From positions 32,001 through 96,000 of IMG/VR virus record IMGVR_UViG_3300002220_006617: 64,000 nt of DNA. One strand, given 5' to 3'. The notes beneath the pieces are model-generated. The model saw only the letters and a program-made list of their open reading frames with translations, made no database searches and was not told the DNA's origin. The number at the start of each line of letters is the position of its first letter. Within the stretch, counting starts at the first letter, position 1. Source of the DNA: a virus. Lineage: Duplodnaviria; Caudoviricetes. This document shows positions 8,341 to 49,304 of this stretch, one piece after another. The translations under genes and the position numbers were made by a program.

Positions 8341-8408
8341 ACCGTGCCCCTCACGGGTAACCCCTCGCCCTGATGGACAAGGGGATACTCCGTCGGGGCA
8401 CATACGGT
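8341..8408 (+). repeat. Long TGAT-loop hairpin H1
   Basis: GTGCCCC/GGGGCAC, CGGGTA/TACTCCG and CCCCT/AGGGG stems; TGAT loop at 8371; homologous to H2. Confidence 0.75.
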
Positions 8409-8433
8409 GGATTCATTAAAAGGTTTGATCTTT

Positions 8434-8832
8434 ATGGATTCACCTACTACACCAACTATGCCTGCGGTTAAAACCGAGTGGCGAAACGTCGGTAACATTA
8501 TACCGTCGAAGTTTATTACCGGGAAAGATATTGCTTTCCTGAACAACGTCAACCTCAACCTCCTCATTGATCACGACAACAACGTCATGGTCCAGGGGGC
8601 CCCGGACGAAAACAAACAGCCGAGATACATGCAGGTCTCAAAGATCATCCCGGCATCAAACGGCACGACCGGCCGGATCCCTATCTTCGGGACCACGATC
8701 ACGGTCAACCTTGAGCGGCTGGCTGAGATGCGGTCCGGCCAGAGAGACTGGGTCCAGATCGCGATCCCCAAGAAGACGGTCGGCACCACTGCGCCGGAAG
8801 TATCCCCGCACGATATCCCTGCAGCAGTCTGA
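8434..8832 (+). CDS. Small beta-rich protein, paralogue family with 23140 and 46725
   Basis: Shared C-terminal pattern, e.g. SNGTTGRIPIFGTTITVN. Confidence 0.6.
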   Translation: MDSPTTPTMPAVKTEWRNVGNIIPSKFITGKDIAFLNNVNLNLLIDHDNNVMVQGAPDENKQPRYMQVSKIIPASNGTTGRIPIFGTTITVNLERLAEMRSGQRDWVQIAIPKKTVGTTAPEVSPHDIPAAV

Positions 8833-8850
8833 TTTCACGGAGGCCCTCAC

Positions 8851-9291
8851 ATGTCAACCCCCAAATTTTTCCTGATTGCAATGCTGTTAGTCATCAGCTG
8901 CATCAGCTTCACCGGCTGCACAGAAGAGACCACCGCCACGGACTACTCCTGGCAGACTGACAGAACCGATGCTCCCGTTGCCAATACCCCGCGGGTAGTT
9001 GCAACCAAATCCCCGGATTACACCATATCCAACCTTGAGCAGACTTCTGACACCAGCAACCCATACCTGTCAAAGACCACGGTTACCGGTATTGTCAAGA
9101 ACAACCGGAACGTCGAAAAGAGTTTCGTCCTGGTCAAAGCAGAGTTCTTTGATGCAAGCAACGTCAAACTCGGATTCTCCAGTGACTACATTGACTCAAT
9201 AGGACCTGGCCAGTCGGCCAAGTTCGAGATCACATCGTTCAGTGACGACATTGCCGAAAACTCCGATCATTACTCGGTATCAGTTTCATAA
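8851..9291 (+). CDS. Archaeal lipoprotein with FxLYD-like domain
   Basis: Signal peptide with FTGC lipobox; VTGIVKN...VKAEFFDA...IGPGQSAKFEI. Confidence 0.8.
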   Translation: MSTPKFFLIAMLLVISCISFTGCTEETTATDYSWQTDRTDAPVANTPRVVATKSPDYTISNLEQTSDTSNPYLSKTTVTGIVKNNRNVEKSFVLVKAEFFDASNVKLGFSSDYIDSIGPGQSAKFEITSFSDDIAENSDHYSVSVS

Positions 9292-9311
9292 CCATTTTCA
9301 TTTTTTACCGC

Positions 9312-9386
9312 GGGGCCGGGTAGACGTACCCCTCAGGCTAAAGTCCGGCAACCACCGGACGACCAGTTCGACTCTGGAAGACCCCT
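9312..9386 (+). ncRNA. tRNA-like element or pseudo-tRNA
   Basis: 74 nt, GGGG/CCCC ends, CCAG-TTCGACT-CTGG T-arm, two further hairpins; no proper anticodon arm. Confidence 0.3.
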
Positions 9387-9488
9387 TTGAAAAGCGAGCA
9401 TTATTATGTTTTCAGAAATAACATGCAACCCACAGGTGCAGGACCGGTTCAGCAACCCGGCTCAGCACACATCACAGGCGACAAGATC

Positions 9489-11071
9489 ATGAACAGATAC
9501 AATGACCTTCGGGTATACTACGTCGATTTCCCGGACCTCCCGGCAATCTACGGCTGCCCGAAAGTCTGGGCGGAGAACAAGGCCGACTCCATTATAGAGG
9601 CACGGGCCCTCTGGGGCCGCATGGAAGGCAAAGAATGTCATCGACTCCCCAACGGCACACGGGTCTATGAAAAAGATCCATCCACCAAATATTTCGAAAA
9701 CATGATCACCGAAGCCCGCCGGCTCGGGATACCAGCAACGGACATGTATTAGCATGACAACTGATGAAGAACTAATCGAGATATTCGAATTTGACAAATG
9801 GATGAACGTCACCCAGGGTAAAATCATTTTACTCGATGAACGGTTCGCCAACAAAACAGAACGCGAGAATCCGAACCTGCACGTTTACGGGGTTCGTGAA
9901 GAAGAAAACCCGGACTGGAATGGAATCCACATATCCAAACCCGGCGGTGAACTTGATTTCATCCAAACCATCGAGAAAAACGTATGGGTCAATCGAATCA
10001 TGGAATTCATCACAGACTTCCCGATCCCCCACCTCGAGAACAACGGTATCATCAACCTCATGAATGGGGACACATCAACACCCTGGGACGTCAACAACGG
10101 TGATTTATCCATCCAGACTTGGGTAAACGACATGTTTGAGTTATCATGACCCACAAAACCAAAGGGATCCATGAGATCAAGTCCGGCATCTACAAAGGAC
10201 TGACCACAAAGGAGGTCCTCGACAATGCCTGGGAATGCAATAGTATTGCCCAACATCACATCCTGACCAGTTGGGCCCCGGACTTCCCGACACGCGACAT
10301 CATCTGGGATGAAGAGATCCGCGGTCAGACTACTGACGGGTACTGGGAAAACATGCCCCTCTGCAAAATACGGATTCTGGACCTCCTGAACCACCGTCCC
10401 GAAGAAGATTATCACCGCGGTATGTTCGGCCGGATGCTCTTATCAGTCAGATGCTGCCCGGGCCGTGAAGATTACGGGATTGGTAACCTGTTCCGGGATA
10501 TCCGGAAAATAGCCGAAGGTTACGACAACGATCGCCTGGGGGAATGGCCAAATGCTGACGATAAAGATTGCAGACTGAACTGCAAACAGTATCAGGAAAG
10601 CAAATACAAAGCCGAACAATGCGACGCCGAAAAACTCTGGCGTGAAGAACACAAGGAGACCTGGTAATGACGCAAATAAAAGCAATTGTAACGTTCGACA
10701 TCCCGGACGACAAACCCATGCACGAAATACTCGATAGTGACTTCTTCCTCGAAGAACCCGAGTTAAAGTTCCTCAACGAAGTTGCCGACAAGACCTATCC
10801 GGAACTCACTCCGGAACAGCAGGAACAAGTGCGTGACTGGCTGTTCAAAGACAAAATGAGTTACGAACTTGCCGGGGACGATTACGACTACAAAATCATC
10901 AACCCCTCACTCAACGCGGTAAACTGCCCAAAATGCAGGACCCAGAACATCACGGCCGAACCGCCCAACGGCGACCATAACCAGATGTGGGAACATATTT
11001 ATTGCAATGACTGTTCTTACGGCTGGATCAATATCTTTGAATTCACCGGTCAGGAGACCAACCATGGATAA
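9489..11071 (+). other. Four hypothetical CDSs (9489-9752, 9754-10149, 10146-10667, 10667-11071)
   Basis: Tightly coupled ORFs; the last carries a CPKC..CNDC Zn ribbon. Confidence 0.6.
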
Positions 11072-11372: not shown

Positions 11373-11445
11373 GGACGGTTTCGTCCCCGATCGGGTAAAC
11401 CCCTCGCCTGATGGCGAGGGGAATACTCCGTCGGGAACGACATCC
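11373..11445 (+). repeat. Long TGAT-loop hairpin H2
   Basis: CCCCTCGCC-TGAT-GGCGAGGGG, flanked by CGGGTA/TACTCCG and TCGTCCCCGA/TCGGGAACGA. Confidence 0.8.
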
Positions 11446-11489: not shown

Positions 11490-11843
11490 ATGACAGACGA
11501 CGACAACACCCAGAACCCTACCCAGGGTACCGATATGAACAGCCCCCAGACCACCGAGCCCATCACCGAGGTTAACGCCAGCGGAGAGGACAACCAGACC
11601 GGCCCGAACAGCGAGCCCGTCGAGTACGTTGCATCTGTCAAGGGTGTAGACAAGGTATTTGACCACGCGATCACCCTCCAGGACCTCATCGACTTCACCG
11701 AGGAGCAGGGTGTTAAGAAGTTCTCGGCATACGCGCCCGAGACTGCAGAGTTCCCGAACGGCCAGAAACTCAAGGCCCGCATGTTCCCCTACGCCGGGGA
11801 CGTCGAGCTCCGTGAACTCATGGAGCCCAAGACCTTCAACTAA
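11490..11843 (+). CDS. Putative ubiquitin-like (beta-grasp) small protein
   Basis: Acidic disordered N-terminus then beta-beta-alpha-beta-beta pattern; directly upstream of ThiF; ends PKTFN, no Gly-Gly. Confidence 0.5.
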   Translation: MTDDDNTQNPTQGTDMNSPQTTEPITEVNASGEDNQTGPNSEPVEYVASVKGVDKVFDHAITLQDLIDFTEEQGVKKFSAYAPETAEFPNGQKLKARMFPYAGDVELRELMEPKTFN

Positions 11844-13024: not shown

Positions 13025-13479
13025 TGATCCCACCATCAATCTGCATCATTTCCTGCGGTAAAGCCAAATACTGGGACGCTCATCCAGATGACGCAACCAA
13101 CACCGTAAAACCTGCCCGTGACGTTTACACCGGTCCACTGTTCAAAAAATGTGCAGAACTTGCTGAACTGACGCATCCATACAACTGGTACATCCTCTCA
13201 GACAAATACGGACTGATAACACCGGACCAGTTAATCCAGAACTACGACGTATCCCCAGAAGTCATCAAAGACAACAACCTGTTCCGGTTACTCGTAGAGT
13301 TCCAGGCTCTTTCTCTCAACATTCTCAAAACCGAACGTGTCGTAGCACCTGTCGGTAAAATCCACGAATCTGTCATCAAATCTGTTTTCACAGATTCAGG
13401 ATACATAAACCCCCTGGCTGGCATGTCCCAGGGCAAACGCATGCAAACACTCACCAGACTCATCAAGGACAAACCATGA
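13021..13479 (+). CDS. DUF6884-like protein
   Basis: IISCGKAK...ARDVYTGPLF...WYILSDKYGLI...NYD. Confidence 0.7.
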   Translation: MMIPPSICIISCGKAKYWDAHPDDATNTVKPARDVYTGPLFKKCAELAELTHPYNWYILSDKYGLITPDQLIQNYDVSPEVIKDNNLFRLLVEFQALSLNILKTERVVAPVGKIHESVIKSVFTDSGYINPLAGMSQGKRMQTLTRLIKDKP

Positions 13480-14200: not shown

Positions 14201-15949
14201 ATGTTCACCTTTGAGATCTGCAAAGATTCCGATAACAGTTACATGCTGAACCCTATAGGAGATACCGATAGCGATCCAGCATTCAACCGTGCATCCATGA
14301 AATTGCCCTCCATGGACGACTGGAGACGGTTCCTCATTTATTGTACAGAAAACGAGTTCTGTTGCATCCCTCTCAAGGACAAAAAAGCATTACTCCGGTC
14401 AAAATACGGCAAGAAATCCATATCGTTTGTGCTTGAACCTGACGAAGAGATCAATGCACTTGTACCTCATGACGAACTGGTTTCATTACTCCCGTTATTT
14501 GCCATATGGCTCCAGTCACTCAACACCGCCAGGTACCTCATTAACCAGCGAAACAAAGGACATGACCTCACCAGGATCACCAGTGCAACCGAACTTATTG
14601 AATCCAAAGATCTGGTCGTCTCGCTCCTCAAGAAAACTCCCGACTGTTCCATGAAACTCGTGGTCAACGGAACCCCGTTCGTCATGGACATGACCAACCA
14701 GAGCTGCGACACTGACTACCCCATCACCGATCTGTCTGCCTGTAAAAACGAGGATATGCAGGGAATCTACAACACGTTTGCCAACCTGGTTCAACTTCTC
14801 CGTGAAAACGCCGAGACCCGGATCAGCGTACTCGAAAAAAAACAGAACGAAATTGAACAAACCCTCCGGACCAAAATCTTCTCGGAAGTCATGCAAAAAC
14901 TTGCAACCTTCGTATCGCATGGCTGGACGTTCAACAAAGCCGGATATTTCACCTACACCCATCAAATCAACTGCACCCACCTAGTAATCTCGGCATCATA
15001 CCTTACCGGTGAAAGTGTTATAGATACAGACGACCTGCTCTCTCTTGAACTCCCTGAAAATCTCCGAGCAAAATTCCAGATCCCCGGTATCATAACCCCC
15101 TATAAAGACAAAATTGAAGGGGTAACCATCGTCAGCGATTCCAAAAAACCCGCTTACCACCCTCATTACGACAGCCAATACGGCTTATGTATCGGAGACT
15201 TTGCCAAAAGGCCGTTTGACGAAATTATCAATCTGCCCCAGGCACTCACCCAGATCAATTATAACAGTATGTGGGGCGGTAGAGCAAATGAAGAACTCAA
15301 TCGCTGGATAAAAACCATCAAGGAAATGCCCAAAAACAAACTCGATCAGTTTGTCCGGAAAGCCAGAAATGAAGACAGCGACGTCTTCTGCAAAGACCGG
15401 GAATACGATGAAGAACCCATCCCTGCGGTCCCAGAACGGGCGACCATAACAATTCTCAGTCCGGACGGCGCATCTGCCAGAGCAACCGTAACTGCTGCAG
15501 AGATCATCAACCCGGGAATGGCCAACCCACAGACAATAGTTGCAGCAACTCACACGAGCCCCCAGGTAATCATTCCGCCAGAATTGGTCATACCCCGGGC
15601 AAGAACGCCCAATATCATGGAAGCCTGGACTAGCAACCCCGACGTAGAACAGATCGGTCAAGACATGCAGATCCTAACAGACATCATCAACGAACACAAT
15701 GATCAATTCAGGCGCGACTATGACGGGGCAATCGAGTTCGATCAAGACGGTAACCGTAGTCGGATCAACGCTGGACTACCCCCGATAAACCTTGCAGAAG
15801 AACGAAGCCATCCGGCAACAACCATACGGATAATCCCGCTTGGGGGGGACACAGACGTATTCGAAACACCGGCTCCAGTCGCCCACAACCCGATCCCGGC
15901 CCATGTTGAAGACTATGAGAACGACGATGAAGTGTTCGGCAGCCACTAA
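14201..15949 (+). CDS. Large protein with coiled coil and putative prokaryotic E2-like domain
   Basis: YHPHYDSQYGLCIGD resembles the E2 HPN/H...C active site; followed by INYNSMWG. Confidence 0.55.
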   Translation: MFTFEICKDSDNSYMLNPIGDTDSDPAFNRASMKLPSMDDWRRFLIYCTENEFCCIPLKDKKALLRSKYGKKSISFVLEPDEEINALVPHDELVSLLPLFAIWLQSLNTARYLINQRNKGHDLTRITSATELIESKDLVVSLLKKTPDCSMKLVVNGTPFVMDMTNQSCDTDYPITDLSACKNEDMQGIYNTFANLVQLLRENAETRISVLEKKQNEIEQTLRTKIFSEVMQKLATFVSHGWTFNKAGYFTYTHQINCTHLVISASYLTGESVIDTDDLLSLELPENLRAKFQIPGIITPYKDKIEGVTIVSDSKKPAYHPHYDSQYGLCIGDFAKRPFDEIINLPQALTQINYNSMWGGRANEELNRWIKTIKEMPKNKLDQFVRKARNEDSDVFCKDREYDEEPIPAVPERATITILSPDGASARATVTAAEIINPGMANPQTIVAATHTSPQVIIPPELVIPRARTPNIMEAWTSNPDVEQIGQDMQILTDIINEHNDQFRRDYDGAIEFDQDGNRSRINAGLPPINLAEERSHPATTIRIIPLGGDTDVFETPAPVAHNPIPAHVEDYENDDEVFGSH

Positions 15950-16108: not shown

Positions 16109-19100
16109 TCATGACCGTCAGGTTCCGATGCACGGACCTTGACTCCGGCAATCAGAAAGAAATGGACCTCCTTGAATGCATTTACGAACACGACGTATCT
16201 ATCACTCCATTCGAATTCCGTAAAGGTATCGGACCCAAATCCTGGTTTTACCTCAGCAAATCACTAGGGTACACTACGGGCCTCCGGCTTGACGACGACT
16301 GGGCAGTCCAGTTCATGAAATCAGAACTTCCAAGCGGCCGGAAATGCTGGCACCTGGACTGGTCAGCAATTGACTACATCATCTATTGAGGTAATCGGAA
16401 TGCTATCACAGACCCTGATAATCTCTGAAAAACCCAGCCAGAACGCATTTCCAATCGAAATGTGCCCTGTCTGCAACCATGTAAAATGCACCGAAGTCAT
16501 TGACATAAAGATCAACAAGAACGGTGTTCTTGAAGAGTATACCACCTGCAGTAACTGCAGAAGCGAATATTCCAACATCTATCATCACGACTCGGTCAAA
16601 ATCCACGTAAAAAACGGAGTAAGTATATGACCTACGATCCCTGCACTGAATGTCCTGACGAAGATTGTCATGGTAACGATCCTGAATGCAATACCTATGC
16701 GGAATGGGCTGCCAAAGAAAACCCCAGTGATAAAGAATACGAAGTTATCCTCCGGATGACTGTCACCGCAACAACCCATGAAGAAGCTGCCCGAGATGCT
16801 CAGGAAACAATCGATCAAGCTGATGATTCCTGGTCTTTCGAAGTCAAAGAAGTCGGTACTGACGAAGTAATCATCGTTGACCTTGCCGACCACGATGACG
16901 ATGACGATGACGCCCATGACGACCTCTGGGGCGACCCGGATGACGAACCCTCAACATTCCCGTCATCTGAACCGCGGGTATCCGAAGATGATGAAGACCG
17001 CGAGTTCCAGAACCAGTGCAATGACAACCGCAGCGTATTCAGTCACCCGTGATCACCATGGACCACTCCATTTTTTTAAGAGAAAATATTGAGTGCACAA
17101 ACGACCCGAATACTGTTGCCAAAAAAATCATCAACGATTGCCAGACAATCCCGGACATCGAATATGTATTCAAACGATTAACCGAACAGATTAAAGGTTA
17201 TGAAAAATGCCTCAATACCCTCCAAACTATCGAACGCCTGATATTCTACCTGAAAAAAGAAAGAGTCAATCTTATTGAAAAAAGAGGAATGACTACTCTC
17301 ATCCAACTCAACCGCCAGGAACCCCGGTACAGCTTCGACAAAGGTATCACCTATAAATACGCGGTAATCACGTTCCCCAACATCGATGAAAATGCCGAAA
17401 CCAACCTCGACAACCACATCAGAACACTCGGATCCACAACCTCGTTCCCCGGAACCGATCGTCATAAAGCAATCCTGGGAGCCCTTGAACTGGCTGATCA
17501 CAACAATACCAAAATCGTCCTGACCGGTTTCGGCAAAGACGTCCCAAAATCGATTCCGGAAGATATGATCTACACGACCCGCAGAATCTACCACCCATTG
17601 TATTAAGGTTTTCACCATGTATTCCCTCGACGGTTACCCCGAAGATCAAATTGCCAATCTCGCAAAAGACGCAATAACTGAACGATCCAACATCGACAAC
17701 CTGGATAGTTTCATGCTCGATCTCAACGGTACCATTGCCACCAAAGAAAAATCACTAAACAAATATTACCTGTTTAGATCGATCGCCACAAAAGAATACC
17801 GGAAACATTGTATAGAACTCATGCCGGAAAAGAGTGTTATTGACATCATTCTACTCTCAAAAGATACCCGGCGATTTTATCGGAACGGCCGAAGACAATC
17901 TGAACCGCGGTACCGAGTACAGAAAATCCAGTTCGATGAAGGTGAAGGTAACCTCAATAAAATGACACCCTTATCCCCCCCCACCGATTTCAAACAGTCC
18001 GAGAAAGAGAATGCATTCCAGCTTGCCAAGAACCTGGCCGCCCCGGACAACCTCAAGATCCACATACAGGGATTTCCCGACAATTTCCCGTTACCTTCAG
18101 GAATCCTCCCGTCCATGCTATCGCCACTTGAATACTACATTCCCATCGAGACCCGGTACTAACCATGTTTGACTCTGGCGATGAAGATGAATTCTCTGCA
18201 GAAACCCTGCAGACCCACTGCGGTCACGAAGATCTCCGCAGTACCCTTGACACCCCTGCCCTAAAAGATTCAGTCCAGAACGATCTTGACTCCTGGGTCC
18301 CAGGCAGTCTGTATGAAAGAATACGTGAATCCGTCCGTGAAGATTACGAAGACTGGGCTGAAAACGAACGATTCGAATGCGATGAAGACTGTGCCAACAG
18401 TTGCGCTCTGTTCAAGGTCCAGGAGATCGGCCAGGAAATGGAAGATGAGATCCCCTGTATGCTCTGCAACAACCGCGGTAACATTGAAGCCTGTAAAACC
18501 AACCCTGGCTGCACTGATATGGACCGGTTCAAACTTCAGGTCAGAAACGCCTGCAAAATCATCGAACGCTACATGACCGAAGAAATCGGAATTAGATAAT
18601 CATGACTCCAGAACTCCCCCTATATTTTGCCCGGTTCATCATTGCTGACCCGAACAATAACGACCAGCCGGTATACGACATATCAGCAAAAGTAACTCGG
18701 AAAGAGATTGCTCATGACGAATACCGGTTCAAACAAGTACTCGGAAAAGCACTATCCCTCTACTTCAATGACACCCAACCGGATTCATTCCGGCAACAGA
18801 TCAAAGATGAAGGATATAGTTTCCTCGACATGATTGACGCTCTTCTGGAAGATGACGAGACGTTCATGAAGTATCTTGCAGCAGAAGGAATCTTTGATCT
18901 CGAACACGACGCTCCTATCATTGACAGTGACGATTGGGAAGCCGGGGACGATATCATTGATCGTCAGTGTCTCGTCACATCATGAGTAAACAACCGCCCC
19001 CGGGCAAACTCCATTCCCGAAAATACAAAAAAATCGTTGACACTCTCAATGAAATTAAACAACGATATGTTAAAAACGGAGAAAATCCCATCGAACAAAC

Positions 19101-21001: not shown

Positions 21002-22258
21002 GTGGTTATTATCACAGACGACGAAAACACTGCATTTGGCCTCGATCACAGAGGGATAATCAAAGATGGATATCCTTTAACATCTTTCTATCGGCCGACA
21101 AACATCCTGGCAAGAGACACTGAAAAACTCGAGATCGGCAAACTGTTTGCCCCGGTCCTGAAATACAACGGGAGTCCGATCAACGCATTGGTTTACGGTA
21201 AATCCGGAACAGGCAAAAACCTGGTTGTTGAATACATAACGGATCTTTTCATCCAGAGTGCTGAAAAACGAGGGAAAAAATACATCAGCATCGTTGTCAG
21301 CTGCAAGATGAGAACACCGAAATGGATACTCCAGCAGTTACTATCGGCTGTCGACCCGAGCCTTTCGGATTATGGTACAGGTAGATCTGTCGGAGAAGTT
21401 TACACCAAACTCCACCAGAACATGAAACGAAAGAACGCATCACTCGTTGTCATCCTGGACGAAATTGATGCATTACCGCCTTCAGACCTCCTCTACGATC
21501 TCAGCCGCATTAAAAAAGATCTACCGCAGGACCTCTATCTGGTCATCATCGGGCTGACCAACAACTTCAACGAACACATCAAAGACATTGCCATTTCATC
21601 CTCATTTGGAAGACGAACCATAGACTTCCCCTCGTATACCACAGAAAACCTCAGAGACATCCTCAACGACCGGCTGTTTGCATTATACCCGGACACCCTC
21701 GAAACCGGCGTCATAGAATACATCGCAAAGAAATCAGCAATCGAACACGGCAATGCACGAAAAGCCATTGAACTTCTCGCAACCTCCGCAGAATTCGCTG
21801 AGAATGAAAAAGACCCTCAGATCACATCTATCCACGTCAACCGGGCATCCGACTACATTGAAATCGACAACCTGATAAAAGACCTGATACAATCGCCAAA
21901 ACACACGGTCCTGGCATTCATTGCGATAGCAGAGCTTCAACATAAACTCGGAGGATCTGCAGTCTTATCCTCGCCACTGTACAAACACTACTGCATAGTC
22001 TGTGACGAAAACCTCTTAACGCCACTATCCAGCACACGGTTTGCAACCATCTGCAGCAGCCTTGGATCCACCGGGTTAATAGATGTCACCGAACGAGTAG
22101 GGAGTCACCAGAAAGGCCGTACCCGAGTCCACAAGATCACCCTGACCGAAAACCGGCTTCACCAAATCATGGCGGTCCTCGCCAAAGAACACGGCTACAT
22201 CATCAACGGTCTTTCAACTCAAAAACTTTTATCCCTCCCAGATTTCAATGAGAAATGA
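21002..22258 (+). CDS. cdc6: Orc1/Cdc6 replication initiator
   Basis: Walker A YGKSGTGK, Walker B VILDEID, FPSYT..LRDIL..R, GNARKAIELL, C-terminal wHTH. Confidence 0.92.
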   Translation: MVIITDDENTAFGLDHRGIIKDGYPLTSFYRPTNILARDTEKLEIGKLFAPVLKYNGSPINALVYGKSGTGKNLVVEYITDLFIQSAEKRGKKYISIVVSCKMRTPKWILQQLLSAVDPSLSDYGTGRSVGEVYTKLHQNMKRKNASLVVILDEIDALPPSDLLYDLSRIKKDLPQDLYLVIIGLTNNFNEHIKDIAISSSFGRRTIDFPSYTTENLRDILNDRLFALYPDTLETGVIEYIAKKSAIEHGNARKAIELLATSAEFAENEKDPQITSIHVNRASDYIEIDNLIKDLIQSPKHTVLAFIAIAELQHKLGGSAVLSSPLYKHYCIVCDENLLTPLSSTRFATICSSLGSTGLIDVTERVGSHQKGRTRVHKITLTENRLHQIMAVLAKEHGYIINGLSTQKLLSLPDFNEK

Positions 22259-22424: not shown

Positions 22425-22530
22425 GCCGCACGGCTGATGCCGCGGCGTCCCATCATCTCAGTTACCGGATAACGTAGTTCCCATTCGTAACCCGTGCCGC
22501 TTGATAGCGTCAGGGTTATCGATGGGAACT
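22425..22530 (+). repeat. Tandem TGAT-loop hairpins H3a and H3b
   Basis: CGGC-TGAT-GCCG (loop 22435); AGTTCCCAT..TAACCC..CGCT-TGAT-AGCG..GGGTTA..ATGGGAACT (loop 22502). Confidence 0.75.
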
Positions 22531-22603
22531 CCACCCCCTGTGATCCGATTTTTATGTACAAACTGATCCGATCCGTACCTTTCCGCACTACGCATTCTGT
22601 GGA

Positions 22604-22654: not shown

Positions 22655-23146
22655 ATGACATCTACTATTCTTGGGATCACGGGCCGCATCGAGGCTCGCC
22701 ACTTTATGAAACTCGACCAAATTTGTGAACAACAGGCAAACAAACACCTGCCGGTTAAGTTAGTCAAAATCGACCCTCGGTGTGAGAAAGCAATGGAATG
22801 GGCCCTCATCCGCGGCATGGCCATTGTCATCGAGAAACTGAACTTCACCTACGAGAGAAACTCCATCGACGAGTTCACCAAACTGGTAGTCGGTGAACCC
22901 ACAACCCCCGAGGACTACGCAACCCCAGGCGTTGAAATGGACATCTGCAACCTCACAGACTGCAACATGCCGATCACCCATTCACGAGTTGCACTCGAAG
23001 GCACAGACGGACTCCCGCTGGTCGGCGACCTCTTACCCGACCGGGAATACGGGCGCTGGGTAGGTCCAGACGTCAACATGATCGTCGCAACAGGCGAAGT
23101 CAACGTCCCCAGAATTGAAGGCATCCCCGTAATCAGGGCGTGGTAA
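22655..23146 (+). CDS. Hypothetical protein
   Basis: ORF with GGAG upstream, downstream of class I motif. Confidence 0.6.
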   Translation: MTSTILGITGRIEARHFMKLDQICEQQANKHLPVKLVKIDPRCEKAMEWALIRGMAIVIEKLNFTYERNSIDEFTKLVVGEPTTPEDYATPGVEMDICNLTDCNMPITHSRVALEGTDGLPLVGDLLPDREYGRWVGPDVNMIVATGEVNVPRIEGIPVIRAW

Positions 23147-23523
23147 CTTTGGCAAACAACGGACATTTCGAACCAATCGGCAACCTCAGAATGGGCAACA
23201 CCAACCCGACAGGCATCCTGTGGATCCCCATCAACGTAATGCTTGAGAACAACAAAGTCATCGGCATGCAGAAACACGTAGACGCCGAAGGCCAGGAGTC
23301 CTGGACCCAGGCAGAGGTCGGAGTCATCAAGGAGACAGCCACGGGCAAATCCCTGGCACTCAACATCTTCGGCACCGACGTTTACGTCAACAAAGAAGCC
23401 GTTGCCCAGCTCAAATCCAAGAAAGTCGGCGCGATCCAGAGTGTCAGTGCGGTCACCCTCATCCACGACAGCAACGCTCCAACCGGAGTAAAAAGCGGAA
23501 TCCAGCGGGAAACCGCTTACTAA
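23140..23523 (+). CDS. Small beta-rich protein, paralogue of 8434 and 46725
   Basis: VGVIKETATGKSLALNIFGTDVYVN. Confidence 0.6.
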   Translation: MVTLANNGHFEPIGNLRMGNTNPTGILWIPINVMLENNKVIGMQKHVDAEGQESWTQAEVGVIKETATGKSLALNIFGTDVYVNKEAVAQLKSKKVGAIQSVSAVTLIHDSNAPTGVKSGIQRETAY

Positions 23524-23934: not shown

Positions 23935-24900
23935 ATGAAGGACTCGTACTTCACGAAACGAATCCGTCAGGACAAACAAGCTCTTGAAACGTATACAAGA
24001 GCAATCGAATGGGACCCTGTCAGACTCAGCCGGGCCATGTCCTCCACGGGTTTGCCGCATGAAGATGTCTACCTGGAAACGCCAAACCAGAAACTCATTG
24101 ACCATCTCTCAACATTCATCCTGAACGCCGGCACGAACTTCTTCTTCATCCTCGGCCCCAACGGGTTCGGCAAAAGTTCCATCAAAGACTTCTCGTTACT
24201 GGTCTTCAAGGACATCAACCAATATGTTTCATTCAGCCTTGACAACATCGGGCCGATCACAACATTCCAGATGCTCCGTGAAATCTACCTCAACATGACC
24301 GGGCTGGAAAAAGCGCCACGAACCCGCGGGGAACTCAAAGATGCGATCGTCAACCACCTGATAACCACTCGGAGCAATGAAAAACTCCCGATCACAACCA
24401 TCGTCTGGATTGACGAAGGCCAGAAACTCACATCTGAAAAACTCGAGGCCCTCCGGATGATAGCCGATACCAGGACGCTCAAAGGCGACTTTACCTGCAA
24501 ATTCATCATTGTCGGAACCGAAGGACTCAAAACCAAAATCGCCAACTGGATGACAACACATGATGAGGAAGGCATGGCTGTCATGGACCGGGGATCCCAG
24601 TTCACCTACGATCTCAACCCCTGGGACGAACAACATATCTTCAACTGGTGGACGCTCCTCACGGAATACTGTTCAATCAACCAAAGCACAGACATGATCA
24701 ACCCGTTCCAACCGGTCACTGCCAAGATCGTCCACAAACTCAGTGAAGGTAAACCCCGCGACATAGTCCAGTTATCCCAACTGGCCCTGCTCGCCCGGGC
24801 AGACAAATATTTAACCGATCCTAAAAACGGCTGGACAGTCCGACCAGACGACATCATGGACGCCCTCGGCATCAAACAGACTGCGGAGAAGAAAAAATGA
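23935..24900 (+). CDS. AAA+ ATPase, ExeA/AAA_22-like
   Basis: GPNGFGKS, WIDEGQKL, FIIVG, SEGKPRDI. Confidence 0.8.
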   Translation: MKDSYFTKRIRQDKQALETYTRAIEWDPVRLSRAMSSTGLPHEDVYLETPNQKLIDHLSTFILNAGTNFFFILGPNGFGKSSIKDFSLLVFKDINQYVSFSLDNIGPITTFQMLREIYLNMTGLEKAPRTRGELKDAIVNHLITTRSNEKLPITTIVWIDEGQKLTSEKLEALRMIADTRTLKGDFTCKFIIVGTEGLKTKIANWMTTHDEEGMAVMDRGSQFTYDLNPWDEQHIFNWWTLLTEYCSINQSTDMINPFQPVTAKIVHKLSEGKPRDIVQLSQLALLARADKYLTDPKNGWTVRPDDIMDALGIKQTAEKKK

Positions 24901-29615: not shown

Positions 29616-30341
29616 ATGACCGACATCTGCAACCTCGGCGGATTCATATCCCTGAGCACCCTGGACTGGCCCGGCCGATCAACATCAGTTATCTTTCTCC
29701 GCGGCTGTCCCAACCGGTGTCCCGACTGCCACAACAAACATCTGGCACAGGAAGGCCCAACCGTCCCGATGACTGAAGTCTTCGAACTCCTTCAACTCTC
29801 AGTCCCATTCGTCGGCGGTGTCGTAGTTTCCGGCGGTGAACCCACCAAACGCCTTGAAGAACTGACCCGTATCCTCGAGTACGCTCACGATATCGGGCTA
29901 CAAACCCGGGTCCAGACCAGCGGGATCTACCCGGCCAACATTGAAAAACTTATCGACCGGCAACTCGTTGACTCAATTGCCCTCGACTTCAAAGTCGAAC
30001 TCGGCCGGATAGACACGATCCTCCCGAAAAATATACCCTATTCCGCGGTCCCGCAAACTCTCAAAATCTGCGAGATAGCCCGGGCCTCCGGAACACTGGA
30101 TGATTTTGAAGTGGTCCACACCATTTTCCCGTATTACGGTCACGACCGACAACTATCCCACATCTCAAACTACGTCGATAGAAAAACCAAATTCATACTC
30201 AACCAAGGCCAACCGCTCAACCCGGTCCATTTACCATTAGATCACGACCGGCTCTGCGAACTCACATCCACGTTCGTACGGCAACCGCTCCGATACGTCA
30301 GATCAAAAGATAAAGGACAGGTGTTTGTCAAAAATGTGTAA
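29616..30341 (+). CDS. Radical SAM protein, anaerobic RNR-activating family
   Basis: STLDWPG, GCPNRCPDCHN, VVVSGGEPT. Confidence 0.85.
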   Translation: MTDICNLGGFISLSTLDWPGRSTSVIFLRGCPNRCPDCHNKHLAQEGPTVPMTEVFELLQLSVPFVGGVVVSGGEPTKRLEELTRILEYAHDIGLQTRVQTSGIYPANIEKLIDRQLVDSIALDFKVELGRIDTILPKNIPYSAVPQTLKICEIARASGTLDDFEVVHTIFPYYGHDRQLSHISNYVDRKTKFILNQGQPLNPVHLPLDHDRLCELTSTFVRQPLRYVRSKDKGQVFVKNV

Positions 30342-31031: not shown

Positions 31032-31403
31032 ATGACCCGCATCACTACCTCCACGGCATCGCCTGCAGAACCCCAGAAATTTGTCATTATCACCCGGCAC
31101 CAGGGCGTCATTGACTGGTGTACCAGTAAAAACATCATTGGCAAATGTATCAAACATCTGAACCCTACAGACATTGAATCCAATGTAATCTACGTCGGAA
31201 TCGCCCCGCTCCCGTTAATTGAAAAAATCCTCAAGAACCGATCCCGGTTCTGGATGGCAACCGCCCCCCTCAACCTCAATTACCGGTATGAAGAACTCAG
31301 TGCTACCCAGCTGAACGAAATGGGTATGATCCTCAGGGAAGTCTGTTACCTGGAAACCATCCCGATCAACTATCAGTTCCCCTGCATTCTCGGTGCATCA
31401 TGA
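31032..31403 (+). CDS. Csx16 (VVA1548)-like protein
   Basis: ITRHQGVIDW...HLNP..I......G..PL.L...R.EELSA.QL...G matches the Csx16 pattern. Confidence 0.7.
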   Translation: MTRITTSTASPAEPQKFVIITRHQGVIDWCTSKNIIGKCIKHLNPTDIESNVIYVGIAPLPLIEKILKNRSRFWMATAPLNLNYRYEELSATQLNEMGMILREVCYLETIPINYQFPCILGAS

Positions 31404-31647: not shown

Positions 31648-32334
31648 ATGACCGGAAAACTCATTGCATTTGAAGGAATTGACGGAAGCGGCAAAACCAG
31701 CATTCTGTCAAGACTCTGTAAAGAATACGGGGACAACCCGAAATACCAGTTCTCAAAAGAACCCACGCGGTCTAGTACTGGGGACGCCTGTTACCAAGCC
31801 ATCAACAGTGGCGACGAGATCCTCGCAGCCCTGGCATTTGCCGTCGATCACCGCTGGCACATCAAACACGTCATTGAACCTGCACTGGCCGCCGGCAACC
31901 ATATCTTCACAGACCGGTACATCCACAGCCACTATGCTTATCAGGTCCAGACACTCGAGAACGATCCCGATCTCGACGCCAAAAACACAAGCCCTATAGA
32001 CTGGCTCGACGCCATTTACACCCCGTTCACCCGGTACCCGGACTACGTGTTCTGGTTTGTCGTTGACCCTGACGAAGCAGTCAACCGCATCAAATCGTCC
32101 AGGACAAAAGACAAGATCGACCTGTATGAAACTGCAGAGTTCCTCAGTAAGGTCCACACAGAATATCAAAAACAACTGGTATCCAACCGCATCAACGCCG
32201 ACAACTCCGTGTACCTTGTCATCGACACCAACCTCAAAAACCTCGACGAAGTCTACCAGGACGTTGTCATGTGTCTTGAGACCCTGAACATATTGCCATC
32301 AGCAAACCCTAATACCCCGGACGCCCCAGTATAA
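31648..32334 (+). CDS. tmk: Thymidylate kinase
   Basis: AFEGIDGSGKTS, KEP, TDRY..S..AYQ, PD. Confidence 0.92.
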   Translation: MTGKLIAFEGIDGSGKTSILSRLCKEYGDNPKYQFSKEPTRSSTGDACYQAINSGDEILAALAFAVDHRWHIKHVIEPALAAGNHIFTDRYIHSHYAYQVQTLENDPDLDAKNTSPIDWLDAIYTPFTRYPDYVFWFVVDPDEAVNRIKSSRTKDKIDLYETAEFLSKVHTEYQKQLVSNRINADNSVYLVIDTNLKNLDEVYQDVVMCLETLNILPSANPNTPDAPV

Positions 32335-32388
32335 CCAGCACAGACAACAGGCCAGGTAACCAGATTCAGCAACCTGTGTTACCGGATT

Positions 32389-32446
32389 GAAGTTCCCGCA
32401 CGTAACCCTGCCGGTTGATACCGTCAGGGATATCGGCGGGACCTTC
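32389..32446 (+). repeat. Long TGAT-loop hairpin H4
   Basis: Homologous to H3b with compensatory changes (CGGT-TGAT-ACCG; CCCGC/GCGGG). Confidence 0.75.
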
Positions 32447-32714
32447 CCACCTGCCGGTTAATGATTTTCTGTACGGTACAACACAATCCTTCGAGATCCA
32501 GCAACGACCATGATACCAGACAACCATCAGATCCGCAAAGGCCGGGACCTTCGATGCCCGGGATGCAGCCTCAGAAAACATGCACGATACCGGAGCGGTA
32601 CCCACGATTTCCGGTGCTGTCATTGCGGTAAAATCTTCACTCGAGAACAGGCCCTTGAATTCATGACTCAGCTTGACGCTGGACTCATGGCAGCATAATC
32701 ACAGACGACACATC

Positions 32715-39794: not shown

Positions 39795-40424
39795 ATGAAA
39801 TCAAACGACATCAAATCTTTCACAGATCCCGAATTGATCAGCACAATTCTCAAGATCCAGGAAACGGAAAAGGACCACCCAAAAAGAACAAACCCTGTCA
39901 TAAAAAACATCCTTGCCACCCTCAACCAGAGGAAAGAACTCACATCATTCGAAGACCTCACCGCAAACTACGGGATCGGATCAGAAACCGCCCTCAAGGT
40001 CCTCGCATGCTTCGAAGTCGCCCGCCGGTACCAGGCATCAGGCGACCCCTCCTACAGAATCACCCAGCCGGAAGACTGCCTGAAACTCCTCGACCCCTAC
40101 CGGGAGAAAAAACAGGAACATTTCATTGCATTCACCCTGAACGGAGCCGGAGAAGTAATCGGCAACCGGGTTATCACAATCGGATTGCTCAATCACAGCC
40201 TCGTCCACCCGCGGGAAGTCTTTGCCGACGCCGTCACTGACCGGGCAGCATCCATCATCGTCGCCCACAACCACCCGTCAGGCTCCTTAGAACCCAGCAG
40301 CCAGGATATCGCCATCACCACCCAGCTGAAAGAAGCCGGCGCTATCCTCGGCATCCAGCTGATCGACCATCTCATCGTAACAAAAACGGGCCATGTATCC
40401 ATGAGAGAACGGGGATTAGTATGA
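39795..40424 (+). CDS. radC: RadC family JAB-domain protein
   Basis: QEHF, VHPREVF, AHNHPSG..EPS..D, DHLIV. Confidence 0.92.
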   Translation: MKSNDIKSFTDPELISTILKIQETEKDHPKRTNPVIKNILATLNQRKELTSFEDLTANYGIGSETALKVLACFEVARRYQASGDPSYRITQPEDCLKLLDPYREKKQEHFIAFTLNGAGEVIGNRVITIGLLNHSLVHPREVFADAVTDRAASIIVAHNHPSGSLEPSSQDIAITTQLKEAGAILGIQLIDHLIVTKTGHVSMRERGLV

Positions 40425-43248: not shown

Positions 43249-43683
43249 ATGATCTACAACACCATCTTCAACAAACTCAATGCACTCGGGTTCCTCAATG
43301 TCTGGGACCATGCAACCCTCAAGGTTGAAGGCTTCATGCCACTCGAGATCGAGGTCCTCCGGAAGACTGCTCCATTATCCAGCAACCCCTGGAAAATAAT
43401 CTCCGTCATGCACTGGTATCTCCAGGAAGGCGACGTCATGCGAGATCCCGACATGGAAATCCGGGTCTACACAAACGCCAAAATTGCAGAGGCACTATCC
43501 TACCGGCAAGACGGCGTTCCCGGAGTCGGCACTATCTTCCAGGAAGTCTACCCGGAACCCGGCAAAATCAATCAAAAACACAAAAAAGAACTCAACGTCT
43601 TCCTCAACCAATGGCTGACGAACATTAAAGATCAGGGATTCAAATACCCGGAGTCAGAGGTAAAGAAAAATGACAGCGACTGA
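43249..43683 (+). CDS. DUF1249/DUF6908-like protein
   Basis: GFMPL.IE, HWYLQEGDVMRDPDM, LN.FL..WL.NI..QG. Confidence 0.75.
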   Translation: MIYNTIFNKLNALGFLNVWDHATLKVEGFMPLEIEVLRKTAPLSSNPWKIISVMHWYLQEGDVMRDPDMEIRVYTNAKIAEALSYRQDGVPGVGTIFQEVYPEPGKINQKHKKELNVFLNQWLTNIKDQGFKYPESEVKKNDSD

Positions 43684-45495: not shown

Positions 45496-45819
45496 TGTTA
45501 CAATCAGACTGTTTCCGGGGCAGGGCCCTTTCACATGTTACCGTCTGAGGTTACAGTTTGTTACCGTCTGGCACCGTCTGTAACAAAAGAATGTTACAGT
45601 TTGTTACAGTCAGACTGTTACAGTTTGTTACAGTCAGGTGTAACCGTCGACACAGGCGGTAACAGTTGCGGGTGTAACCGTCGGAAGTGTAACAGGTGTA
45701 ACCGTCGACACTGACGGTAACAGGAGAATGTTACCGTCTGACACCGTCTGTAACATTCAGGTGTAACATTTTGTTACAGTGACTTTCGTTTAAGTGTAAC
45801 AGTGTAACATTTTGTTACA
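45496..45819. repeat. Array of about 22 GTWAC sites (iteron/operator-like)
   Basis: TGTTAC/TGTAAC/GGTAAC recurring mostly every 8-23 bp, ending at the ATG of 45819. Confidence 0.85.
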
Positions 45820-46148
45820 TGACAAAAAGCAACGTCAAACGAATCACAGAAGACTCAGAAGCAATTGCACTCAGTTACGGCCCGACAATCTCAGATGGCA
45901 TCATTGCTATGGCAAATCTTATCGGAAAACCAACCCCGGCACCAACAGTTTCCGCGATACCGTCACAACAGACAGTTTCTGGCGGGGACCTGGAAACCAT
46001 CATCAGAAAGATAGTCCAGGAAGAGGGCGTCACCTTATCGCCGAAAGCAATTGAGACGGGCATCATGCTCAGCAAGAAACAACGTGGGTTCTTCCAGAAC
46101 CTCAATAATGCATTGATCATGGCCATGAGCCGTGAAAACAAAATCTGA
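45819..46148 (+). CDS. Putative ribbon-helix-helix-like DNA-binding protein
   Basis: NVKRITEDSEAIALSYGPTISDGIIAM beta-alpha-alpha pattern; late-type promoter at 45779. Confidence 0.5.
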   Translation: MTKSNVKRITEDSEAIALSYGPTISDGIIAMANLIGKPTPAPTVSAIPSQQTVSGGDLETIIRKIVQEEGVTLSPKAIETGIMLSKKQRGFFQNLNNALIMAMSRENKI

Positions 46149-46379: not shown

Positions 46380-46393
46380 AAAATTACCAAAAG
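46380..46393 (+). promoter_or_regulatory. Class I motif AAAATTACCAAAAG
   Basis: ATG 10 nt downstream (46404). Confidence 0.75.
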
Positions 46394-46403
46394 CGACGAG
46401 TGT

Positions 46404-46616: not shown

Positions 46617-46654
46617 TTTATCCGGACTGTACGGACTAACGAGTGTCTCTCGAA

Positions 46655-46668
46655 AAAATTACCAAAAG
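46655..46668 (+). promoter_or_regulatory. Class I motif AAAATTACCAAAAG
   Basis: AACGAGTGTCTCTCGAAAAAATTACCAAAAGGTACT identical to the 37.5-kb copy; ATG 10 nt downstream. Confidence 0.75.
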
Positions 46669-46724
46669 GTACTTTCGAATGAGATCACGGTTTCGTCACA
46701 TGATCTTGTTCAGGAAGTATTGAT

Positions 46725-47189: not shown

Positions 47190-47311
47190 CCAATCCGCAC
47201 CCTTTTTGCACGTCTCTCACACCTGTATGTCACCACACATTGATCCGTTCCCATCATGGAAATTGGGGGGCGGATCCTTCTTTTTTGTACTGCCATGACA
47301 GCGGGGCCCGA

Positions 47312-47454
47312 TCCCCCGGCGCGCCTGGTCCTGATGAACCAGCCACTCTGGGGGACGACCCCCTATGGTCCGGTTGGGGATAGTCGGGCCCTGCGTCCTG
47401 ACAGTCGCAGACCCCTGGGCGGCGCTGATGCGCCGCTGTCAAGAACAACCCGTA
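47312..47454 (+). repeat. Structured block A, copy 1 (TGAT/TGAC hairpins)
   Basis: 47373-47454 matches 49223-49304 with about 4 mismatches; GCGGCGC-TGAT-GCGCCGC. Confidence 0.85.
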
Positions 47455-47841
47455 GTGATAGCCCAGACACATTCAATAAGAAGAATAAAACACTGACCCT
47501 GAAAACAATTATATACACCAACCGGTGGGAGAAGGTCATACCCTTAAATAAGAGAAACGATGTATTTATATCCTGACACCGTCAATAATAGTATGTCTGC
47601 AAGGCTTTGTCACCTTGCGGCGCGATAGATCTATTCTCAATATAGTTCTGTCGTCTGTGATTCATTCCGTTGCTGGAATAGCCAAGGACAACGGGCCGGC
47701 CACACAAACCTTTCGTTGCTGAAAAGGGGTCGGTCCGGAACTCCCTGAGCTGGTTTACTGTTACTTTCCTGGAGTGTCAACCTTCGTGCGATCGGAGGTC
47801 TGTTCTGTTCTTGGGGGCCGTCGCCCCCGCCACGAGGGCAT

Positions 47842-47926
47842 CCCCAGACGCCTTGCACCACGGGCTTCGCCACGAGCAAGTCTTTACAAGATGATGGAGG
47901 GCTGCCCGCCCCCCAAACCCCCTGGC
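47842..47926 (+). repeat. Structured block B, copy 1
   Basis: CCCCAGACGCCTTGCACCA...AGCAAGTCTTTACAAGAT.ATGGAGGGCT shared with 49545-49632. Confidence 0.8.
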
Positions 47927-47983
47927 CAAGGGGATCCCCCCTGGACCCCCGGGGCTGGCCGCAGGCCCACGAGTGCATTTGGA

Positions 47984-47997
47984 AAAATTACCAAAAG
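47984..47997 (+). promoter_or_regulatory. Class I motif AAAATTACCAAAAG
   Basis: ATG 10 nt downstream (48008). Confidence 0.75.
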
Positions 47998-48007
47998 CAA
48001 CGAGCGT

Positions 48008-48151
48008 ATGACGTCCTTTACAGGTGTTACGCAGCAGGTATTGACCTCAGACCACATGATGCAGCAGTTCCAGCAGATCTTCTCGTTCGATCTTCTGTTC
48101 GGGCTCAACCAGTTCGTTAGTTCAATCATCATGGTCTGCGGGTGGTTCTGA
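48008..48151 (+). CDS. 47-aa hydrophobic peptide, copy 1
   Basis: MTSFTGV...MMQQFQQIF..DLL...; no Lys/Arg; starts at the motif-defined ATG. Confidence 0.6.
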   Translation: MTSFTGVTQQVLTSDHMMQQFQQIFSFDLLFGLNQFVSSIIMVCGWF

Positions 48152-49068
48152 TGGAGATCGGATTCTCCCAGAACCTCGATTACGATCGGGCGGTTATCCG
48201 CAAGCATGTGGGGCCCGCTACGGTTCACGGCAAATCGGTCAGCAGGGACAACAACCCCCGCCACGACCTTTTCGTCTGCACAGATTGTGGCGATGTGAAA
48301 TGTGATTCATGTCCGATTGACTGGGACAAGGTTACTCGGCAGCAGCGGGGGGTCTAATCATGATCACTCCCGTCCGTTGTCCCAACTGTGGCAAACATTA
48401 CATCCCCGACCTCGGTGAACGCAAACGGTACGACATGAACATCCAGCAGGAGTTCCCGAACGCGACCAGCATCCAGCGGGAACAACTCATGACAGGTCTC
48501 TGCAGTGACCAGTGCTGGCAGGAATTCCTCGGACCTGAGCCTGAGGAGGATTTCTGTGAAGGATGCACTGCAGACTGCACCTTCTGCCCGCAGGCTGACG
48601 GGGAGAGTGCAGAATGATCATTGACGGGGACCAGCCTGTCAATAAGATCCTCGACCGGGCCAGCGAACCCCTTCCTGCCAAACCGTCAGGTGACGTGGTG
48701 GTTGGCTCATGATCGACTTCCAAGTCCCCTCCCATCTGGGGGGCCGGTTCACCAACATTTCCCACGTCAGAATGCGGAGTTGCCAGACAGTCTGTTACGG
48801 TGACCCGTGTGACGGGGTGTGGAGTGGTGTTCCCGATGCCATCAGGCATCCAACGTTCACTCCCCGCCAAACGTTCCTCGCACTGCAGTCGATCTATGAA
48901 TCACAACATCAGGACATCATAGCATTCGATATCTACGATGCCATGGAGCTCGAGTGCTGTGATCACTGTCCAATAGCAGCAGACTGCTCAACACGACCGC
49001 GGGTGGATGGCGACATCGACTGCATCACCGTGCAGGACTGGGCTTACAGTCTGTTCAGGACGAATTAA
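48151..49068 (+). other. Three small Cys-rich (Zn-binding) CDSs (48151-48357, 48360-48617, 48709-49068)
   Basis: CxxC clusters. Confidence 0.55.
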
Positions 49069-49102
49069 TCACCTTTTTTTTATGTACGCTGGCGCTGTGC
49101 AC

Positions 49103-49304
49103 TGGGGCTGGCCCTGATGGTCCCACCCCACGGGGTTATACGAGATGTCAACCCCCCAACCCCCCTCTCCAGGGGGGCTAGGCCATACGGTCCTGGACGG
49201 ACCGATGGCCAAATGGTGTATTGTTGGGGGTAGTCGGGCCCTGCGTCCTGACGGCCGCAGACCCCTGGGCGGCGCTGATGCGCCGCTGTCAAGAACAAAC
49301 CGTA
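49103..49304 (+). repeat. Structured block A, copy 2
   Basis: TGAT loops at 49115 and 49276, TGAC loop at 49249. Confidence 0.85.

Follow-up and report, generated by a model that had tools for sequence, protein, structure and literature searches.

A family of covarying intercistronic folded elements in the genome of a tailed virus assigned to archaea

Introduction

Do hairpins with a common tetraloop that recur between the genes of a tailed virus form a single family, and what might such a family do? The question is raised by a 64,000-nt stretch of viral DNA, hereafter the window, which corresponds to bases 32001-96000 of the 127,665-bp IMG/VR record IMGVR_UViG_3300002220_006617. An earlier note on this DNA had listed nine hairpins with a TGAT loop in the window, treated them as one family, and proposed that the products of three open reading frames (ORFs) read them. 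Here, we describe R1, a family of folded elements of approximately 66 nt that includes some of these hairpins and is present in 11 copies in one genome, that of a virus which we assign to archaea from its genes. Genome positions below refer to the whole record and window positions to the 64,000-nt stretch.

Very little is known about the organisation and timing of transcripts in archaeal tailed viruses. In a review (PMC5569661), archaeal viruses are described as dependent on the host machinery, with no RNA polymerases of their own known.

Results

The R1 family and its copies

Four of the hairpins in the window, referred to in the earlier note as the long ones (8371, 11409, 22502 and 32416), have in common GGGTAACCC ... 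TGAT ... GGGATAC(T)CC. A simple pattern had seven + strand matches across the genome, with none on the minus strand and none for a reversed control. A covariance model built from eight copies was used to search the whole genome, and returned 11 copies with E values ranging from 1e-5 to 4e-19, all of which were on the + strand (Table 1). With filters off, the model detected no further copy in the window beyond the four long hairpins.

The copy at window 8342-8407 has a 32-nt core, from GTAA to ATAC, at 8357-8388, with its UGAU loop at 8371. It lies 14 nt past the stop codon of a Dam-like gene (8327) and is followed 27 nt downstream by the ATG at 8434. In the copy at 11380-11445, which has its UGAU loop at 11409, the apical stem is perfect over 9 bp; the upstream stop codon (11339) is 40 nt before the element and the ATG at 11490 is 45 nt after it. 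The copy at 22472-22538 represents a subtype with a continuous base helix (GUAA/UUAU, with one G.U pair), to which the copy at 32387-32452 also belongs. The former is found within a 397-nt gap after the Cdc6/Orc1 gene (21002-22258), with a GTTACCGGAT box before it and a T-tract followed by TGTAC after it, and the latter within a 381-nt gap after a thymidylate-kinase-like gene (stop at 32334). By pairwise alignment, the similarity of these two loci was extended, covering approximately 100 nt.

Structure and covariation of R1

The outermost part of R1 consists of two short helices of variable sequence. The base helix ends in an invariant G-U-A opposite U-A-C, in which the G is paired with C in nine copies and with U in two, and the U-A and A-U pairs are constant across all copies. 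A bulged U is situated on the 3' strand just outside this GUA/UAC helix, and an A.A mismatch just inside it. Further inward are a C-run/G-run helix and then a variable apical helix, often with one mismatch, leading to a tetraloop closed by C-G or U-A. The TGAT loop, which the earlier note took to be the signal, is present as UGAU in 10 of the 11 copies and replaced by UGCG in the other, whereas the most invariant part of the element is the basal GGGUAAC / GAUACUCC motif. The geometry of R1 is also conserved. The core measures 32 nt in eight copies, 33 nt in two and 38 nt in one, and the base motif is separated from the UGAU tetraloop by a fixed distance of about 10 bp.

Significant covariation, by which the earlier note had proposed to check its hairpins, was found in the 11-copy alignment. 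Paired cells amounted to 87.9%, compared with 66.6 +/- 2.1% after shuffling, and changes on both sides were seen at 16 of the 21 pairs. The covariation score was 0.54 versus 0.20 for shuffled alignments, with none of 500 shuffles scoring as high. When the 3' partner was slid by 1-3 columns, pairing fell to 36-51%. Compensatory stems quoted in the earlier note (CGCT/AGCG versus CGGT/ACCG; CCCAT/ATGGG versus CCCGC/GCGGG) were likewise correct. Folding energies of R1 copies were -28 to -42 kcal/mol, as against a genome mean of -12 kcal/mol for 66-nt windows. Because of the excess of pairing, the two-sided changes, the covariation and the folding energy, the structure of R1 can be regarded as under selection, and its standing as a real cis element with a selected fold is close to certain.

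These data bear directly on whether R1 could be a functionless selfish or neutral palindromic repeat, akin to repetitive extragenic palindromic (REP) sequences or miniature inverted-repeat transposable elements. R1 does resemble such repeats in being a multi-copy intergenic palindrome, some copies of which have outer stems alike (e.g., CGATCGG...CCGTCGG). However, its sequences have diverged yet pairing has been kept through double changes, and exact length and exact unpaired bases have been kept as well. Moreover, neither RAYT nor Y1 transposase (PF01797) was found in the virus genome, and so compact a genome (approximately 10% non-coding) would be unlikely to retain 11 neutral inserts of 66 nt. 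We therefore regard a functionless repeat as the least probable of the explanations considered here.

Placement of R1 copies and flanking signals

All 11 copies of R1 are located in non-coding DNA. By public gene calls, seven of them start 0-53 nt after an upstream + strand gene has reached its stop codon, the stop being inside the element in two of these, and the distance to the next start codon (14-263 nt) is far more variable. The gene blocks bordered by R1 are 1-11 kb in length, and the family is limited to the non-structural part of the genome, i.e., 8-64 kb, plus 119 kb. At the divergent gap (genome 8177-8244), a + strand gene with a AAGGTGAT ribosome-binding site starts 34 nt after the element. 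Given that stop-proximal, divergent-gap and convergent-gap placements all occur, R1 fits a mark of gene-block borders and is not exclusively a leader, a trailer or a terminator.

A/T-rich boxes or T-tracts were found within 15-45 nt after most copies, with T-tracts at this distance in about six. The 22472 copy is followed by ATTTTTATGTAC and the 32387 copy by GATTTTCTGTAC. No consistent TATA-like box was found upstream of R1 copies. The T-tracts, together with the position of most copies immediately after a stop codon and of one copy in a convergent gap, would be expected if R1 elements were transcription terminators, or terminator-associated hairpins, that close gene blocks; in one case a run of seven T directly follows the outer stem (genome 15529), and other tracts lie within 45 nt. 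Archaeal termination, however, needs oligo-T and not a hairpin. At least three copies (genome 8177, 30185 and 119042) have no T-tract, and the first of these has no upstream + strand gene to terminate. Furthermore, a plain terminator would not account for a base motif that is asymmetric and invariant, or for a length and a loop that are fixed. A terminator role for R1 itself is, in our estimation, quite improbable.

Other signals were noted in the same intergenic DNA. A T-tract followed by (T)GTAC recurs at gene-block ends on the + strand (window 22549, 32465, 40545, 47281, 49075 and 49815), and the strict form TTTTT-N(0-3)-TGTAC was present at five loci on the + strand and at none on the minus strand; this combination is likely to be an oligo-T terminator signal. 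A separate, second class of regulatory signal is represented by the motif AAATTACCAAAAG, which occurs eight times on the + strand and not on the minus strand, and only within genome 54-82 kb. Finally, a dense array at window 45500-45820 contains approximately 24 GTTAC/GTAAC sites in both orientations, with the consensus GTWAC followed by A/C and then G. One 500-nt bin holds 22 of these sites, the next-richest bin holding seven, and the array is just upstream of a 109-aa ORF (45819-46148). It is probably a protein-binding DNA region, and probably an iteron/operator or origin region.

Searches for R1 in other sequences

The entire 127.7 kb was compared with Rfam release 15, and no match at gathering level was obtained except for tRNAs. 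A permissive Rfam scan at R1 gave generic hairpin noise, the best being mir-3070, for which the score was 20 bits and the gathering score is 75. Hammerhead and selenocysteine insertion sequence (SECIS)-like readings were rejected on the R1 alignment and the lack of Rfam matches. In IMG/VR, a strict R1 pattern matched no other contig, and a looser pattern gave single chance matches only, among the matches listed. R1-like stretches retrieved from JGI metagenomes (14) and GTDB genomes (8) scored 13-26 bits with the model and were dismissed as chance matches. Most of the 14 metagenome matches were inside long ORFs, and the best-looking one was in an aIF5B-like gene of Methanobacterium. In the single distant relative examined, identified by its large terminase (TerL), there was neither an R1 match nor any GC hairpin in the gaps between genes.

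On the sequences searched, R1 is thus so far confined to this virus lineage. The suggestion in the earlier note that an undescribed element was present is borne out by the absence of an Rfam match, the absence of a counterpart elsewhere and the significant covariation. Taken together, R1 is a previously undescribed element family and constitutes intercistronic structured punctuation in this virus genome.

Other UGAU hairpins

All nine TGAT loops reported in the earlier note were present where it had placed them. The tetraloop found most often in perfect hairpins genome-wide is TGAT, with 13 such hairpins having a stem of at least 4 bp as compared with 1.4 +/- 1.0 in block-shuffled sequence; the reverse-strand equivalent, ATCA, was the loop of only four perfect hairpins. 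Membership of a single family was upheld for the four long hairpins, but not for the five others (22435, 47332, 47426, 49115 and 49276), which gave no covariance-model match and are plain GC-rich hairpins distinct from R1. When these five regions were folded, three were no more stable than shuffled sequences. The TGAC loops that had been put forward as variants (47399 and 49249) turned out to be weak loops within the direct repeat that carries the 47426 and 49276 hairpins.

This direct repeat of approximately 68 nt (47383-47450 and 49231-49298) is part of two GC-rich non-coding modules, at window 47281-48151 and 49074-49811, which also contain several hairpins. The modules are without the A>T skew seen in the rest of the + strand.

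The three ORFs

According to the earlier note, the ORFs starting at 8434, 23140 and 46725 (P0001, P0002 and P0003, respectively) form a three-member paralogous family, with each ORF at a hairpin locus, and encode PC4/PUR/Whirly-like binders of single-stranded nucleic acid that read a UGAU stem-loop code. Homology between P0001 and P0002 was supported by a full-length alignment with approximately 20% identity (BLASTP E 1e-4), but P0003 had an hhalign probability of only 0.3% against the profile of this pair. Similarly, P0001 and P0002 are the first and second genes after R1 copies, respectively, but P0003 is beside a hairpin that is not R1. A search of the genome with the P0001/P0002 profile retrieved only those two loci. 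Public gene callers start P0002 at 23191, which gives a product of 110 aa.

A word-indexed search of 5.8 billion proteins yielded no homologue of P0001. For P0002, one homologue with 56% identity was found on a 1-kb contig, and the only other outside sequence similarity was to PAS domains, whose C-terminal beta-strands matched weakly and repeatedly. No nucleic-acid-binding domain was found in P0001 or P0002 using Pfam or PHROGs, nor did a profile search of Protein Data Bank (PDB) sequences give a match. AlphaFold models of both proteins were beta-rich and poor, with predicted local distance difference test (pLDDT) values of 57 for P0001 and 55 for P0002. With these low-pLDDT models, Foldseek returned nothing from the PDB at E <= 0.001 (E > 0.3), and VIA-align gave a best Z of 2.9, with the Whirly protein StWhy2 at a noise-level Z of 2.1. 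A protein atlas gave a template-modelling (TM) score of 0.64 to unnamed archaeal and viral proteins of approximately 130 aa and also, as leads only, a feature score of 0.79 for an Enc34 single-stranded-DNA-binding family cluster and a TM score of 0.5 for DUF736.

The proposed assignment as single-stranded nucleic-acid binders thus found neither a domain nor a fold match above noise. That these proteins read R1 is consistent with the positions of P0001 and P0002 after R1 copies, their weak mutual similarity and the atlas hints. Nevertheless, P0003 is unrelated to them, the pair has no Pfam or PHROG domain and only PAS-like outside similarity, and nine of the 11 R1 elements have no gene of the P0001/P0002 type nearby. 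We consider this model very improbable, if marginally less so than a functionless repeat.

The virus and its genome

The virus is of myovirus type, with genes for a large terminase, a Mu-type portal, an HK97-type major head protein, a tail sheath and baseplate proteins. It further encodes MCM, Cdc6/Orc1, RtcB, RNA ligase, RlaP, a CCA/polyA polymerase, anaerobic NrdD and several DNA methylases, and carries a tRNA cluster. Since the terminase has its nearest named relatives in genomes of Archaeoglobus, Geoglobus and ANME-1 (Methanospirareceae), and given the presence of both MCM and Cdc6, this is, as judged from its genes, an archaeal virus. Searches of IMG/VR with the major capsid protein and TerL identified no close relatives. 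The + strand, rich in A and C, carries almost all of the genes.

Contigs of the same virus were found in several samples of one ENA study and in one JGI metagenome. One of these, the 127,827-bp ENA contig k141_2162301, is a circular permutation of the IMG/VR record and bridges both of its ends (N6/N4 methylase, ThyA, MCM, ERCC4, TerL). As this contig joins the record ends, the genome is complete and circularly permuted, rather than an 83% fragment. The two assemblies differ in length by 9 nt between the C5 methylase gene and P0001. Three contigs from different samples stop 94-104 nt past the end of P0001 (window approximately 8930), a pattern suggesting that assembly breaks off where the next gene starts, owing to strain variation or to a repeat.

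Several further features of the genome were observed. The large terminase (contig L124:2732-4627) is 631 aa in length; most relatives are approximately 440 aa and cover about 65% of it, the longer viral protein having an extra N-terminal part, and several relatives contain LAGLIDADG or intein insertions. A 123-aa protein (window 31032-31403) matched Cas_VVA1548 (PF09652, E 1e-10), a family of small CRISPR-associated proteins; its gene could, we presume, be a counter-defence gene. The tRNA cluster (contig L124:17802-19935; Ile-UAU, Asn, Leu, Lys and Ser) adjoins the viral RtcB ligase gene. It includes a 154-nt Rfam tRNA match that was missed by ARAGORN, the probable cause being an insert or intron. 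With the RNA ligase, RlaP and CCA/polyA polymerase further along, these genes make up an extensive toolkit for RNA repair or splicing, to which genome 20212-21510 and 30437-31753 also belong.

Table 1. Positions of R1 copies, other hairpins, motif sites and ORFs discussed in the text
Feature	Genome position	Window position	Strand	Evidence or context
R1 copy	8177-8244		+	Divergent gap; 40 nt from start of four-gene minus-strand cluster
R1 copy	13405-13470		+	Covariance model
R1 copy	15464-15529		+	Run of seven T directly after outer stem
R1 copy	16862-16927		+	Stop codon inside: TAA of conserved GTAA, at 16878
R1 copy	24213-24279		+	Covariance model
R1 copy	30185-30256		+	600-nt gap, upstream of RNA-ligase block
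R1 copy	40342-40407	8342-8407	+	cmsearch 76.9 bits, E 2e-18
R1 copy	43380-43445	11380-11445	+	cmsearch 79.6 bits, E 4e-19
R1 copy	54472-54538	22472-22538	+	cmsearch 59.6 bits
R1 copy	64387-64452	32387-32452	+	cmsearch 64.3 bits
R1 copy	119042-119107		+	Fills 75-nt gap between two convergent stop codons
Plain GC hairpin, UGAU loop		22425-22446	+	Fold z = -0.45; no cmsearch match, filters off
Long irregular hairpin, C(UGAU)G apex, in GC-rich non-coding module		47303-47363	+	Fold z = -3.5; no cmsearch match
8-bp GC hairpin, UGAU loop, direct-repeat copy		47418-47437	+	Sequence, fold
Second copy of repeated 8-bp UGAU hairpin		49268-49287	+	Sequence, fold
AAATTACCAAAAG sites		22605, 37494, 42089, 46381, 46656, 47985, 49645, 49908	+	Motif search
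ORF P0001, 132 aa, beta-rich orphan		8434-8832	+	First gene after R1 copy; weak paralogue of P0002
ORF P0002, 127 aa from GTG		23140-23523	+	Second gene after R1 copy; weak paralogue of P0001
ORF P0003, 154 aa		46725-47189	+	Unrelated to P0001 or P0002

Discussion

What, then, might R1 do at the borders of gene blocks? The reading that we favour, tentatively and at somewhat less than an even chance, is that R1 is an RNA punctuation hairpin, bound by a protein and perhaps cut, which would define or protect the ends of gene-block transcripts. R1 would act within + strand transcripts, where a dedicated viral or host protein may bind it as a molecular ruler that touches both the loop and the basal motif. 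Such binding would mark the ends of gene-block RNAs through endonucleolytic processing, through protection of the 5' and 3' ends so produced, or through the two combined. This would resemble, in its logic, the RNase III sites of phage T7 or tetraloop-anchored cleavage by yeast Rnt1p, albeit without RNase III. We prefer RNA punctuation because the fixed distance between loop and base suits a protein ruler, because placement at block borders matches the logic of T7, and because a UGAU-capped stem is a substrate of Rnt1p.

Several observations weigh against RNA punctuation. RNase III (Ribonuclease_3 / Ribonucleas_3_3), EndA or another recognisable endoribonuclease was not found in the virus genome, although the enzyme could come from the host. 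The minus strand of R1 folds 3.6 kcal/mol better than the plus strand, the background difference across the genome being 3.3 kcal/mol owing to a G/T-rich strand bias. Once this bias is allowed for, folding energy therefore shows no preference for the + strand, and we rejected it as a means of assigning the strand. The non-standard cells of the R1 alignment include seven C.A mismatches, which would be wobble pairs in the minus strand, and three G.U pairs. In addition, a GTTACC box is present 20-30 nt upstream of four R1 loci (approximately 1e-5 by chance). These boxes resemble the iterons of the GTWAC array described above, and hint at a regulatory context at the level of DNA. Lastly, all R1 copies come from one virus lineage, so that all of the covariation is among paralogous copies in one genome; contigs from strains of the same virus carry identical R1 elements and add no variation.

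Some of these points would be accommodated if R1 functioned as folded single-stranded DNA or as an extruded cruciform, i.e., as an attC-like recombination boundary, a site of replication priming or nicking, or an N4-type hairpin promoter. As in attC sites, the structure, the unpaired bases and a few nucleotides at the base (..TAAC) are retained amid otherwise variable sequence, and copies are located between gene blocks in one orientation. The divergent and convergent contexts are neutral with respect to the direction of transcription. GTWAC-type boxes flank four copies, and the minus strand folds as well as or better than the plus strand. Moreover, five copies have CTTGATA, GTTGATA or TTTGATA at the loop, which resembles the site, CTTG/ATA, nicked by rolling-circle initiators of the pC194/phiX174 type. 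On the other hand, the replication genes of this virus are MCM and Cdc6/Orc1 and not a rolling-circle initiator, and neither a tyrosine recombinase (PF00589) nor a Y1/HUH transposase (PF01797) was found in its genome. When the R1 base, GGGTAAC ... GATACTCC, was compared with the attC core consensus (RYYYAAC...GTTRRRY), only TAAC agreed. R1 blocks are 1-11 kb and contain many genes instead of single cassettes, and the gain in minus-strand stability equals the genome background. With regard to a hairpin promoter, no RNA polymerase gene was present among the scanned proteins, the genome not having been searched for one. On balance, we consider a role as folded DNA unlikely, though a serious rival of RNA punctuation.

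More specific is the proposal that R1 represents viral RNA punctuation in which a reader other than RNase III, either an endoribonuclease or an RNA-binding protein, recognises UGAU together with the GUA/UAC base, its A.A mismatch and its bulged U one helical turn away, and so cuts or insulates polycistronic transcripts into approximately 11 gene-block RNAs, or else that R1, read in single-stranded DNA, is a cassette boundary of the attC kind, which would be the first from outside bacteria. This we deem unlikely; if true, in either form, both the class of cis element and the protein that reads it would be new. Should R1 be a processing site, it would imply that archaea have an endoribonuclease activity so far undescribed. 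Even within the limit of a single virus lineage, a covarying border element of fixed geometry provides an experimental handle: it could be used as bait for the protein that would bind it, and to delimit transcription units in a virus that has not been cultivated.

Among the known systems with which R1 was compared, some could be set aside on structural grounds. The archaeal bulge-helix-bulge motif cleaved by EndA has two 3-nt bulges, on opposite strands and with a 4-bp helix between them, whereas the GUA/UAC helix of R1 is 3 bp long and is flanked by an A.A mismatch and by just one bulged nucleotide, a U. A kink-turn or C/D box was rejected as no copy contains opposed tandem GA/AG, the resemblance of the loop CUGAUG to a C box being superficial only. 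The rolling-circle origin of Rep-Arvir is one hairpin next to the rep gene (PMC13107129), and was rejected as a model for R1 in a virus with MCM and Cdc6.

Integron attC sites are closer to R1. They are 57-141 nt in length and lie between genes in one orientation, as R1 does, and in both cases structure prevails over sequence, with conservation of unpaired bases and of a few nucleotides at the base of the stem. They differ in that this virus has no integrase (PF00589), that its blocks contain many genes, and that no cassette variation was seen. Outside bacteria, attC sites are not known to occur.

In the early and late transcripts of phage T7, mRNA ends are defined and stabilised by RNase III sites. 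These sites differ from R1 in having a large internal loop, in contrast to the conserved tetraloop and small asymmetric motif of R1, and in the enzyme, as RNase III was not found in this virus; archaea, as far as we are aware, are generally without a classical RNase III. Nevertheless, the two are alike in comprising about ten irregular hairpins on the same strand between gene blocks, including the leader and the end of a unit. A second parallel is provided by the substrates of yeast Rnt1p, which are stems capped by A/uGNN tetraloops and cleaved 14-16 bp from the loop; the natural target BDF2 is a UGAU-capped stem subject to loop-anchored ruler cleavage (bioRxiv 10.1101/2025.03.07.642061). Rnt1p is a eukaryotic nuclear enzyme with no homologue here, and the distance in R1 is approximately 10-13 bp, such that the comparison is one of analogy only. 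What Rnt1p substrates and R1 do have in common is a G at position 2 of the tetraloop and a fixed helical distance from the loop to a second site.

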